64,000 nucleotides of DNA, taken from the NCBI GenBank assembly GCA_000004695.1, contig CM000150.2:1952001-2016000 (forward strand), read 5' to 3'. Under the pieces are notes generated by a model that saw only the letters and a program-made list of their open reading frames with translations, did no database searches and had not been told where the DNA came from. Positions 18,455 through 24,748 of this stretch are shown in pieces; within the stretch, counting starts at the first letter, position 1, and every line of letters starts with the position of its first letter. This DNA is from Dictyostelium discoideum (Eukaryota). The translations under genes were made by a program, and so were the position numbers.

Positions 18455-18527
18455 GCCTGGATGGCTCAGTAGGCAGAGCGAGCGGCTGTTAACCGCTAGG
18501 TCCATGGTTCGATCCCATGTCTAGGCG
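18455..18527 (+). tRNA. tRNA-Asn (anticodon GTT), second copy.
   Basis: It is identical to the 73-nt sequence at 4750-4822. About 30 bp of upstream flank is similar in both loci. Confidence 0.9.
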
Positions 18528-18716
18528 ATATTTTTTTTAAGGTTTTTCCATTTAAAAAACAAAAAAAAAAAACCGAAAAAACAAAGAAATAAACGAGAAT
18601 TTATACATATAATAAATAAATCACTGTTATATCTTCACCGCCACATTCATTCCTCTTAATTTTACCCTTTTTTTGCTCAGTAAAGCAAGGGCTATCGTCC
18701 TATATACTTTTCAACA

Positions 18717-19925
18717 ATGGCTGATGATCACTCAACTGAATTACAGTTAAATCATACAGATAACAACACAACCAATACAAATAATACCTCCACAACCTCA
18801 ACAACAAAAAACAAAAGTGCAAAAATCGACACACCTAAAAAACAAACCCCAACAAACCAACTCTCACTAAACAAAGGACTTGATAATCAATTAGATATCA
18901 TTGCACCTCCATCAATCACAAGACCACTCTCTTTCTTAGAAAAAAACAATAACACCATCAACATTAAGTGTTACTTTAATCAACCACACATCCGTGAAGA
19001 ATTAACCTCAAAAGATGACACAAGAATTCAACAAATTCACAAAAACATTCACAAACTCTTCGAAGATATACTGTCGCCATCAGCATTCAAAATAATTGGT
19101 GCAACTGCCTTCGTAAATTGCAACGTTGATAAATTAACTTCAATAATCAACCTTCAAAACCAACTTGCACTAAATATCGACAAACTCAACTATAGATTCG
19201 ATATATCATCAAATGATTATGCAATCATTAAAACATTCATTAAAACGTACTCACCCAAACATGCAAACGATGCAATTACAAACAACCTCACTAAATTCAC
19301 CAGTTGTACATCAATTGAATCATTTACTGTCACATACTCATATGCTGTTGCGTTGAAAAGCTACATTATAACATATCATCTAATTGATCACACACACAAC
19401 ATTGTTGATCAAAAGATCGAACAACCATCTGGTATCACAAGATATATCAAAGCTGCAACACGTAGTGTCACTAAACACAAAATTCAACATGCAAAAAATG
19501 CAGATATGGCAACAACTATAAAAAATGCCATCACAAACCCAAACATGAACAAAAACAATCAACCACCAAAAAACAACATTAACACCCCACCAATCAACGA
19601 AATTGCAAATTCCAACCGCAATAATAACTCACTTCAAAATAGTGGTTCAAAAGCTATACTAAATGAATCACTTGATATTAACAATCAATCCCAAAACAAT
19701 AATGAAATTTCACACAAAAGTGATTCTTCAAATAATAATAACGGGAAAAACTCATTATCAATAAGCAATCCAACCGATCCAACAATTGTACCACAAAAAC
19801 CTCTACAATCTCAACCAAACAAACCAAGTGCACCAACTCCAAATCCAATAAATACAAGAAGAAGCAGCAATGCCCTGACTACACAACCAGTCAATACTGG
19901 TGCTGCCAAACCTAGTAAGGTATGA
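18717..19925 (+). CDS. TRE3 ORF1 (402 aa). Its stop overlaps the ORF2 start in ATGA.
   Basis: The ORF is complete. ...AKPSKV* ends at 19925 and the ORF2 ATG is at 19922. Confidence 0.8.
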   Translation: MADDHSTELQLNHTDNNTTNTNNTSTTSTTKNKSAKIDTPKKQTPTNQLSLNKGLDNQLDIIAPPSITRPLSFLEKNNNTINIKCYFNQPHIREELTSKDDTRIQQIHKNIHKLFEDILSPSAFKIIGATAFVNCNVDKLTSIINLQNQLALNIDKLNYRFDISSNDYAIIKTFIKTYSPKHANDAITNNLTKFTSCTSIESFTVTYSYAVALKSYIITYHLIDHTHNIVDQKIEQPSGITRYIKAATRSVTKHKIQHAKNADMATTIKNAITNPNMNKNNQPPKNNINTPPINEIANSNRNNNSLQNSGSKAILNESLDINNQSQNNNEISHKSDSSNNNNGKNSLSISNPTDPTIVPQKPLQSQPNKPSAPTPNPINTRRSSNALTTQPVNTGAAKPSKV

Positions 19926-22900
19926 GCTCAAAAATCAACTTTATAACATGGAATTGTAGAGGATTCACTGAAAACCCAAACAATCAACACAATTCCTACC
20001 AAAAAGCTGTTGACACACTACAACTACTTATATCAAAACTTCCACCTCGTCCAACAATCTCAATACTCACTGAACTCAATTCATCACCATTACAACTTAA
20101 ACATGATTTTCCCGATCACATCATCTCTGTCACCAAACGAGGAAATGGTGTAATCATCATTAACCATAACCCAAACACACTCAAACTCAAACACATATCA
20201 ACAATTGATGGTAGAGCTATTTTAGCAGACGTTATATTTCCAAATCAATTACCAATTGGTATTCTTGGAATTTACGCACCAGCATCAAATAATACCATCA
20301 AAAAGAATTCATATGCAACTTCACTACAAACACTTCTCCACAACCACTCAACAAACCCAATACCAAACCAATCCCAACATGTATCTATTATCGCAGGAGA
20401 TTTCAACTGTATCCACGACGACAATTCACTATTAGACGATATTATCCAATCCTACACATACCAACACCATCTAATTGATCAAGGTGAATTTAAAAACACT
20501 CCAACTCATACACATGGCAACAGATTAGATAGAATATATACTCAATACAATAGAATAGACCCTGAAAATATATATACACAAGTCCACCAAATTCCATCTT
20601 CATTATCAGATCATAATCCAATATCAACAACAATTTCTTCACCTTTTCAAATAAATAAACATAAGAAAAGATGGATATTATACCTGGTACTGCAAATGAC
20701 CATGAAGCAATCAATATTATCAATCATTTAATAACTAATCACAATAACACATCAATCAATCAATTTACAAACTGGTCAAAAGTAAAATCAAAAATTATTA
20801 AAACTCTAAAAAACTATCAATATAACAAAGACAAACAAACTCAACGTGCAAAACAAATACTATTAGAAAAAGCAGCAAAATTCAAACATCTTGAAGAACA
20901 ATGCATCGCTGAATACAATATTATATGTAACAAAAACAAATTACATCAAAACCACACAAACATATTAAAAAAACATATAAATGGAGAAATACCTAGCAAG
21001 TATCTATCAGCAATACTAAACAAAAGATCAAAAGATGCAAAAATTGAATCAATCCAATATGGTAACATAATTACATCCGACCCCGACCAAATTGAAAATG
21101 CGTTTGTTGAATTCTACACAAATCTATATAGCTTACAAATATGTTGTCCAATTACTCACCAGCTCATGCTAAACACATGGCCCATCATAAAAAATGAATA
21201 TTGGAATGGTTTAGACTCACCATTTATACAAGATGAAGTTGAAGCTGCAATTAAAACCTGTAACCCCAACAAATCACCCGGTCCAGATGGCGTTACAAAT
21301 GCATTCTACATTAATCATTTAAACCAAGTTAAACCAATTCTCACTACATTATTCAACGATATACTAGAAAATCCTCACCACATCACAACAGAATTCACAG
21401 AAGGTCTTATACACACAATATACAAGAAAGGCAACCCCTTACTCATATCAAATCGTCGTCCCATTACACTTCTAAACACTGATTACAAGATCCTCTCAAA
21501 AGTAATCAATGCACGTCTTCTGAGAATACTTCCTTTCATCATCAACAACAACCAAACTGGTTTCGTACCCCACAGATTCATCATAGACAACATCATCAAC
21601 ATCAATGAATTAATCAACTACCTCAAATCTAAAAACCTCCCTGGTATCATCACACTATTTGACTTCTTTAAAGCATTTGATTCTATCTCTCACGATAGCA
21701 TTAAAAGAACATTAATTCATATTGGTATACCAATAAAATTAATAAATTTAATCCACAAGCTATTATCTGACTCACAAGCAAAAATTTCAATTAATGGTAA
21801 AACGACCAGAAAATTCGATATTAAAAGAGGTGTAAAACAAGGTGACCCAATCTCAGCCACTTTATTTGTAATTGTAATTGAAATATTAGCAAGAACAATA
21901 AATGCAGACAATTCAATAATTGGATTACCAATTTCACCCAATCCACAAATTAAAATCAAATTTACCCAATTTGCAGACGACTCTACAACATACAACATCA
22001 ACTACGAACAACAACAACAATCAATCAAACATTTCGATAATTTCTGCGCTTCAACATCATCATCTTTAAATTTTGACAAAAGTGCAATAATAGAAATCAA
22101 CCCCCACAAAATCACTGATAAACACATAATAAACAACATTCCACAATCAAAAAGAATTCCAATAACCAAAAAAGATCAATCAGAAAGAGTTCTTGGCTAT
22201 TTCTTTAATCATAATGGTTTACATAGGAAATTTCCAGAAACAATGAAAACACTGATTAAATCATTAGTGCTATGGAAAACTAGTGGCACAACATTAAAAA
22301 CAAAAACAACCATCATAAACACCTACTCACTATCACCAATAACATATTTATCATACCTTGAAGAATTTACAAAAGATGAAGAAATTCAAATTAATAAATT
22401 AATCTCATGGTTTATGAATTCTCCCGCAAATTCTGAATCACCAACTCTCGATACCAATTCCATTGAAAACAACACATCAACCATCCATTCACGTGCAAAA
22501 ATACCTTTGATGTGTTATGATAGATCATTAAAACCATTAAAAGAAGGAGGTTGGGGTATGTGGAATATCCAATTACGACAAGTTGCTCAAAAGATTTGGA
22601 TATACAACAGATTTTTACAAATGCATAAATCTGCAAACAATTCAATATACATGATAAGTTGGATGGATCAAATCATCAACAAATCAATCTCTTCTCCATA
22701 CCTTATAAAAATAAAAAAAGAATGGGAAAACTATGCAACTCAAATTGGACATCTAAAAGATAAAGTTCAAATCCTACAACCAATATTAACAAAAAACCAA
22801 CCCTCTCAAACATTAAACACAAATAATATTTCACTACCACCAACACTCAAAGAAATCTACTCGACAATACTAAACAATCACCAATGCAAATCAAAAGACT

Positions 22901-23748: not shown

Positions 23749-23892
23749 TTACCTAATCTAAAATAACATACTATTTTAAATTCACAAAAACTAAAAAACC
23801 TAAAATAAATAAATAAAAATAACATACTAGTTGTATACTACAATAGTTTATTTATATCAAAAAAAAAAAAAAAAAAGTTTTTCCATTTGTCG

Positions 23893-23907
23893 CATGTTCG
23901 ATTCTCT
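23893..23907 (+). promoter_or_regulatory. Ex-B-box-like motif (ATGTTCGATTCTC) displaced from tRNA-Asn by the TRE3 insertion.
   Basis: It lies immediately after the right TSD. It is an analogous motif at analogous spacing to the other tRNA-Asn locus. Confidence 0.45.
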
Positions 23908-24748
23908 ATCAAATGGGAGATTTATAAAAGAATTAACCTATTTTTGCAATTGTGATTTCCTTTTATGAATTAACACTAATTAATCAATATTAAAAAAAAA
24001 AAGGTTTTGCGATAATAAATTAATATTAAAATAATAAAAAAACATTCCCTTTTTATAAATAATAATTTAGGATGCAAGTAATTTTAGAAATGTGAATAAA
24101 TAAAATTACGAAAATATTAATGAATAATAAAAAAAAAATTGTTTAGAAAAAAAAAAAAAAAAAAAAAAATGGAATATTTTTTGATAAAAAAAAATAAAAT
24201 AAATAAAATAAAATCTGAGTTAATTTTTTTTTATTACAAATTATCTGATGAACGATCTGGTTTGCGTAAAAAAAAAAAAAAAAAAAAAAAAAATCGATTG
24301 CCCATTTAAATTAATTAACCACCTTTAAATTTTGTGTAAAAACAATTTTGATTATTTTTTAAATTTTATTTTTTATTTGCAGTTATTCTTTTTCTCAAAT
24401 TATTAATTAATCACGCAAAAAAAAAAAAAAATTACGATCTGTGGATTCTTTTTTTTTTTTTTTTTTGCAAACCAAAGACAATAACTGCTTTGAAAAAAAA
24501 AAAAAAAAAAAAAAAAAAAAGATTTTTTTTAATTTTTTATTTTTGGTTCTTTTTTTTTTCTTATAAAAAATATCTAAAAAATAAAAATTTTTTTTTTTTT
24601 TTTTTTTTTTTTGATTTTATTTTTATTTTTATTTTATTCATATTGGAAATTAAATTTATCTATTTAAATTTTATCATAATTAATTTTGTATGTATTATCT
24701 TTTCTAAAACAATTGTTTTCAAACCAATCTATTTTTGCACCCAACGAA

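Follow-up and report, generated by a model that had tools for sequence, protein, structure and literature searches.

The window analysed here is a 64,000-nucleotide (nt) stretch of AX4-like Dictyostelium discoideum DNA from chromosome 1 (assembly GCA_000004695.1, contig CM000150.2, positions 1,952,001 to 2,016,000 of the forward strand) with an A+T content of about 76%. Rfam and ARAGORN both identify four tRNA genes in it, all on the plus strand: two tRNA-Asn(GTT) genes at 4750-4822 and 18455-18527, and two tRNA-Thr(AGT) genes at 43560-43631 and 45247-45318. Our subject is the second tRNA-Asn gene (anticodon GUU) and the retrotransposon lying directly behind it, for which assignment to TRE3, a tRNA-gene-targeted family of elements without long terminal repeats (non-LTR), is supported below. 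The gene (Rfam tRNA, 64.3 bits; ARAGORN, 18454-18528) carries an internal B box, GGTTCGATCC, at 18506-18515 (B-box pattern match at 18507), and its 3' end is followed by gcg A TA TTTTTTTT AAG, a segment that includes a run of eight T residues (T8, 18531-18538) which, from general knowledge of RNA polymerase III (Pol III), we take to be the terminator of the gene. The 12-mer GTTTTTCCATTT comes next (18542-18553), then the element itself (18554-23876), and then a second, exact copy of GTTTTTCCATTT (23877-23888) which directly adjoins GTCgcatGTTCGATTC (23889-23904), a pattern match read here as the displaced external B box of the tRNA gene. The gene downstream of the insertion is pkbA, with exons at 25388-25510, 25618-26791, and 26888-26925.

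The element, as delimited by self-BLAST, comparison with other copies, and Pfam searches, is 5,323 bp long (5,305 bp without its tail) and lies on the plus strand with its 5' end facing the tRNA gene. It opens with an A-rich 5' untranslated region (UTR) of 163 nt (18554-18716) starting with AAAAAACAAAAAAAAAAAACCGAAAAAACAAAGAAATAAACGAG, a start placed by comparing 5' ends among copies. Open reading frame (ORF) 1 follows at 18717-19925 and encodes a 402-amino-acid 'Gag' product in which a Pfam search gave no domain. This product is identical to that of AX4 DDB_G0268942, located on a 4.92-Mb chromosome, and differs at three residues (99% identity) from a 1999 D. discoideum 'Gag' entry, UniProt Q9Y1H6 / AAD43056. 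ORF2 is shifted by -1 with respect to the ORF1 frame, its start codon overlapping the ORF1 stop codon in the sequence ATGA (19922-19925). The first part of ORF2 (19922-20731) encodes an apurinic/apyrimidinic-type endonuclease (APE; Pfam Exo_endo_phos, E = 2.8e-14), and the second part (20671-23748) encodes a reverse transcriptase (RT; Pfam RVT_1, E = 1.3e-30) and, near the ORF2 C-terminus, from residue 806 of this second part, a CX2CX10HX4C zinc-knuckle motif, CPICNNEMNNDPYGHLFFNC. A 3' UTR of 110 nt (23749-23858) and an A18 tail (23859-23876), the latter preceded by TTTATATC, complete the element.

The two parts of ORF2 are separated by a 1-nt deletion, a missing C at 20681-20682, which was located by alignment to an intact copy assembled from reads (L005), in which ORF2 is continuous. 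The site reads TATTATACC in the window and in its AX4-like counterpart L015, and TATTATCACC in the five copies L002 and L005-L008, from which the deletion is absent. Because the deletion splits ORF2 in two, the window copy cannot be expected to make a full ORF2 protein of its own and is predicted to be non-autonomous. Over 4.2 kb it differs from L005 by 17 substitutions and the missing C (99.6% identity), and other copies are 96-99.6% identical to it; judged by its sequence, the window copy is a young TRE3.

At the junctions, the left and right copies of GTTTTTCCATTT are the bases just before the first base of the element and just after the A18 tail. The insertion point lies 26 bp beyond the 3' end of tRNA-Asn, after the T8 run and 7 nt ahead of the external B-box core, leaving the tRNA transcription unit untouched. 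In DNA of this base composition one might ask whether both copies of the 12-mer are a chance repeat, with the true boundaries of the element and the true insertion point elsewhere. The window does hold a third exact copy of GTTTTTCCATTT, at 36712, and versions with one mismatch are not rare in such AT-rich sequence (9 observed against about 5 expected). However, the chance of an exact match is 2.8e-7 per position, giving 0.036 expected copies over both strands of the window; two of the three copies abut exactly the ends of the element, one its first base and the other the final A of the tail; and the same 5' sequence opens other copies of the family. What refutes the chance repeat, to which we assign a negligible likelihood, is the state of the empty alleles, which have one copy of the region and whose alignment to the window breaks exactly there.

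To obtain these alleles, the orthologous locus was taken from seven other assemblies by way of the members of the PkbA cluster, and flanks were compared by direct reading and filtered BLAST. Six of the seven loci, from four D. discoideum (L011-L014) and two D. citrinum (L009, L010) assemblies, are without the element, and in all six the B box comes directly after the tRNA-Asn gene, at a distance of 27-35 nt. The four D. discoideum loci are 81-92% identical to the window over what is mostly a non-coding stretch, and BLAST finds the flanks colinear: L011 5501-8444 corresponds to window 15603-18534 and L011 8532-9356 to window 23938-24783. When the element is removed from the window, the remaining sequence aligns to L011 and L012 unbroken through AAG-(G/A)TTT(T/C)T(C/T)C-ATTT-GTCGC-(A/G)(T/G)-GTTCGA, so the 12-mer region is single-copy in the empty alleles. 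The seventh locus, L015 (GCA_054883475.1, AX4-like), shares 99.6% identity with window 15366-36948 and is occupied in the same way, both 12-mers included. Since this independent assembly is filled likewise, an assembly artefact as the origin of the arrangement is ruled out. On this distribution the insertion is, as far as the compared sequences go, recent and specific to the AX4-like lineage.

The same comparison bears on a different origin of the arrangement, namely ectopic recombination between two TRE3 copies, by which the tRNA-Asn flank would have been joined to an external-B-box flank from another locus. TRE copies are numerous, and rearranged ones lie nearby, such as the copy behind the second tRNA-Thr gene with its inversion and deletions and a tail-to-tail pair in L001. 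Against this, the duplications on both sides of the element match perfectly, and both flanks are syntenic with one locus, from the upstream gene to pkbA, in six element-free assemblies, which refutes recombination and leaves it with next to no probability. Three explanations, the chance repeat, recombination between TRE3 copies, and an assembly artefact, are excluded by the combination of empty alleles, syntenic flanks on both sides, and an independent assembly.

The orthologous loci also differ in other respects. Downstream of pkbA, the gene content of L015 (15403-21169), with methyltransferase and Stealth-domain genes, differs from that of L009-L014 (about 15300-21000), which have a single minus-strand gene of approximately 1,720-1,900 amino acids. 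Separately, positions 7680-8010 of L013, a wild D. discoideum, hold a fragment matching window 3492-3830 (TRE5-type element plus T-run) upstream of the orthologous tRNA-Asn; because of this TRE5-type fragment, the L013 tRNA-Asn locus appears to have been hit independently on its 5' side.

Beyond the right-hand duplication, a B-box-like sequence, ATGTTCGATTCTC, occupies 23894-23906, with the core GTTCGATTC at 23896-23904, now 5,369 bp from the end of tRNA-Asn. In the empty site reconstructed by taking out the element together with one 12-mer, this core starts 34 nt past the tRNA gene, an arrangement also found in the six empty loci and in the paralogous gene of the window. In that paralogue, the sister tRNA-Asn locus (4750-4822), the same core begins at 4853, 31 nt downstream, within an undisturbed external B box, GTCacagGTTCGATTC (4846-4861, plus strand). 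In D. discoideum, 66% of tRNA genes are described as having an external B box about 41 bp downstream, and the extended consensus is given as GTCnnnnGTTCRAnYC (PMC3159450), a form that both GTCacagGTTCGATTC and GTCgcatGTTCGATTC match. The GTC signature carried by both Asn external B boxes is, however, called typical of internal B boxes in the same study (PMC3159450). An alignment of eight sequences shows divergence in the spacer and in the region downstream, with conservation of the core and of the TC(G/A)C ahead of it; only L014 has a variant core, GTTCAATTC.

Given the colinear empty alleles and the conservation of the motif at orthologous loci, the reading of the motif at 23896 as the own external B box of tRNA-Asn 18455-18527 is supported by sequence comparison. 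It would then resemble other external B boxes of Dictyostelium tRNA genes in being a B-box consensus placed about 30-40 bp behind the gene and past the terminator, and differ from them in having been displaced 5.4 kb by an insertion. That the motif is instead a chance B-box-like sequence, so that nothing functional was separated from the tRNA gene, is a fair question, as chance alone should give about 8 matches to GTTCRANNC in the window and such motifs occur once per roughly 7.5 kb genome-wide (PMC5391098). We nevertheless find this improbable: the reconstructed empty site has the motif at its canonical position, it is kept amid a diverging spacer in the four D. discoideum and two D. citrinum assemblies and in the Asn paralogue (allowing for the L014 variant), and it has the extended GTCnnnnGTTCGAnYC form. 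An earlier note on this DNA, made from its letters alone, had proposed that a TRE3 with a 12-bp target-site duplication at both ends separates tRNA-Asn from an external B box near 23897, now 5.4 kb away, and that the sister tRNA-Asn at 4750 keeps its own box 31 bp downstream. The junctions, the anatomy of the element, and the empty alleles bear this out, down to the exact duplication and the distances of the two cores.

The assignment of the element to TRE3 is supported by its sequence features, because published descriptions agree with how the element is built and oriented, with its tail and duplication, and with its place behind a tRNA gene (PMC5006619, PMC5911963, PMC3159450). It has no LTRs and has two ORFs, with ORF2 ordered as endonuclease, reverse transcriptase, and zinc finger, although interrupted here by the 1-nt deletion. 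A 3' poly(A) is present, and the duplication is of variable length, at 12 bp here, 11 bp in a sister copy, and 9-11 bp in the copy behind the second tRNA-Thr gene. The element lies downstream of tRNA-Asn in the same orientation, both being on the plus strand. Its ORF2 is also in the -1 frame relative to ORF1, as is stated for TRE3-A (PMC5911963). The ORF1 proteins of different TREs are unrelated (PMC5006619).

Within TRE3, consensus lengths of 5,229 bp for TRE3-A, 5,279 bp for Dd_TRE3-B, and 4,734 bp for TRE3-C have been given (PMC5006619). Since the length of the window copy fits the 5,279-bp consensus better than that of TRE3-A or TRE3-C, the element is probably a TRE3-B, a name taken from element length alone and not from a reference sequence. 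TRE3-B is reportedly described in Szafranski et al. 1999 and Glöckner et al. 2001. Like TRE3-B, the element is a non-LTR retrotransposon of about 5.3 kb with two ORFs, APE, RT, and zinc finger domains in ORF2, a poly(A) tail, a variable target-site duplication, a same-orientation position downstream of a tRNA gene, and several near-identical full-length copies in AX4; its frameshifted ORF2 sets it apart. TRE3-A (Tdd-3) shares the architecture, the orientation, the kind of target, and the -1 frame of ORF2, and its published range of distances covers 26 bp. It differs in its shorter consensus, and the ORF1 product matches the 1999 'Gag' entry, the record of which is without a readable element name, and nothing labelled Tdd-3; the two are thereby set apart by description rather than by sequence.

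With the junctions and the empty alleles in place, we are highly confident that a TRE3, most likely TRE3-B, integrated by target-primed reverse transcription into the 33-nt spacer between tRNA-Asn and its external B box. The tail at the 3' junction, the 12-bp duplication, and the full-length 5' end are the anatomy of a product of this process. From this anatomy we infer that the endonuclease of the element would have introduced a bottom-strand nick at the left margin of GTTTTTCCATTT, that the RNA would have been copied from its poly(A) end, and that the top strand would have been cut 12 nt further on, 7 nt ahead of the B-box core, with repair giving rise to the 12-bp duplication. Integration in this manner leaves the tRNA unit (A box, B box, and T8 terminator) intact and shifts the external B box by 5.4 kb to a place just behind the poly(A) tail.

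By analogy with TRE5-A, site choice would go through the Pol III transcription complex assembled on the tRNA gene (TFIIIC on B boxes), and this is presumably the route of TRE3 targeting. TRE5-A, a related element of L1-like type in this genome, has its ORF2 domains in the same order; its targeting to tRNA genes goes via the Pol III machinery and depends on the B box. In contrast to the element studied here, TRE5-A inserts upstream of tRNA genes, at about 48 bp, and in the opposite orientation; TRE5-type elements are found upstream of the first tRNA-Asn gene of the window (4750) and none at the 18455 locus.

Reviews place TRE3 insertions '~100 bp' or 40-150 bp downstream from their tRNA gene, a broad window attributed to targeting downstream of one or other of the two B boxes, internal or external (PMC5911963). 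The measured ranges are 14-228 bp for TRE3-A (60 copies), 34-188 bp for TRE3-B (39 copies), 14-305 bp for TRE3-C (29 copies), and 49-285 bp for TRE3-D (11 copies; Spaller et al. 2016, PMC5006619 Table 1). Several points weigh against parts of the reading set out above. The distance of 26 bp, although inside the ranges of TRE3-A and TRE3-C, is outside the 40-150 bp review window and falls 8 bp under the listed TRE3-B minimum of 34. A search by accessions, names, and RT motifs in the literature and the Spaller 2016 supplement found no subfamily name for the element. Finally, the published targeting experiments cover TRE5-A only (PMC5006619). As for the shortfall from the TRE3-B minimum, either the subfamily call or the way of measuring the distance would differ, and the choice of boundary for the A-rich 5' end may account for it. 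The earlier note had measured the same 26 bp and called it closer than the ~100 bp usual for TRE3, which holds as a description but is less exceptional than it implied, the distance being within the published TRE3 extremes of 14-305 bp.

Other copies of the family were inspected for their distance from tRNA genes and for nearby B-box motifs. A second TRE3 copy in the window (45360-49537; 96-98% identical by segment) lies about 41 bp behind the second tRNA-Thr gene, tRNA-Thr2, and has internal deletions, an inverted segment (46998-47346), and a candidate duplication, AAATTCAAAAA, of 9-11 bp; its locus is also present in GCA_054883475.1 as L004. In L001, a 5'-truncated copy lies about 21 bp behind a tRNA-Phe gene, and another copy, at the left end of the locus, about 39 bp behind a tRNA-Met gene, while a 5'-truncated TRE3-like 3' fragment is found about 25 bp behind the first tRNA-Thr gene of the window, tRNA-Thr1. 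The four other tRNA-linked insertions of TRE3 type that we inspected are thus 21-41 bp from their tRNA genes, in a small and non-random sample. Two copies (L002 and L003) have no adjoining tRNA gene or B box. The L002 copy (7852-14243), a full-length TRE3 of the same family, sits within a polyketide synthase gene and is flanked by an 11-bp duplication, ATCATCATTTC; some 1.1 kb of additional sequence (9989-11128) is inserted inside the copy itself. The idea that the L003 copy belongs to a TRE tandem behind a tRNA-Lys gene was dropped, the 6 kb between them looking like ordinary host genes.

Whether other TRE3 insertions likewise part a tRNA gene from its external B box, a check that the earlier note had suggested, received a divided answer. 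Behind tRNA-Thr2, a B-box-like motif, GGTTCGACTCC, lies beyond the insertion (at 49623), whereas behind tRNA-Met the insertion follows, rather than precedes, a degenerate B-box-like stretch.

These copies raise the alternative that the subfamily does not obey the '~100 bp' ruler and prefers sites 20-45 bp behind tRNA genes, often in the spacer between the terminator and the external B box, which would make the present case typical. The distances at the Asn, Thr2, Phe, and Met genes speak for this, as does the fragment behind tRNA-Thr1, and short distances may be common for the subfamily. On the other hand, the sample is tiny and was not drawn at random, the published genome-wide ranges extend up to 188-305 bp with typical values near 100 bp, the L002 and L003 copies are not beside any tRNA gene, and the tRNA-Met insertion comes after its degenerate B-box-like stretch. 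We therefore regard a short-range preference as rather unlikely. If true, tRNA genes would be routinely stripped of their external B boxes, orphan B boxes would be found behind element tails, and the target ruler would differ from the one given in textbooks, '~100 bp downstream of a B box'.

The preferred reading, a single TRE3 insertion into the spacer ahead of the external B box, involves a known element family with known behaviour at a locus within the annotated AX4 genome, and is nothing new in kind. Its value is in providing a clean and documented pair of filled and empty sites for a TRE3 insertion, and in indicating that such an insertion can separate a tRNA gene from a conserved external B box with the tRNA transcription unit left untouched. 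The filled AX4-like locus and the empty loci of wild isolates offer a natural test case for the role of the external B box in tRNA expression and TFIIIC recruitment, and the locus could help clarify how TRE3 chooses its sites.

The surroundings of the other tRNA genes contain further retroelement debris. Right behind the Thr2 copy, in tandem with it, window 49547-49605 holds a 'mini' TRE3 of about 58 bp, in which approximately 27 nt of 5'-terminal sequence are joined to roughly the final 14 nt and an A21 run. A near-perfect palindrome of 110 bp follows at 49612-49721, with the motif GGTTCGACTCC in each arm, at the position expected for an external B box of tRNA-Thr2; its DNA fold has an energy of -48.7 kcal/mol (z = -14). 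The L001 pair already mentioned (8556-10720; the same region as L003) consists of tail-to-tail inverted 5' portions of TRE3 beside the tRNA-Phe gene, joined near element positions 1129 and 1161, and its outer copy has a complete 5' end with no tRNA gene upstream.

A nest of 5'-truncated poly(A) retroelement fragments, including two A-runs of about 70 nt, fills window 43632-44900, starting about 25 bp behind tRNA-Thr1, and a short piece of this nest (...ccgccgaaaagacaca...gtctgatcacaggta-An) also interrupts a TRE3 copy in L001 at 8578-8620. Upstream of the first tRNA-Asn gene, window 1-4700 holds minus-strand non-LTR elements with their 5' ends toward the tRNA gene, which is the orientation of TRE5-type elements. 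The long one has ORF1 at 3700-2366 and an ORF2 that starts with the endonuclease and continues past the left end of the window, and the short one is located between a T52 run (3779-3830) and about 4700. One sequence of 40-50 bp, atgaaaaatgaaataatcaaaaaaagagattgttg, is common to three places, at about 3847, 4640, and 45138, the last of these upstream of tRNA-Thr2.

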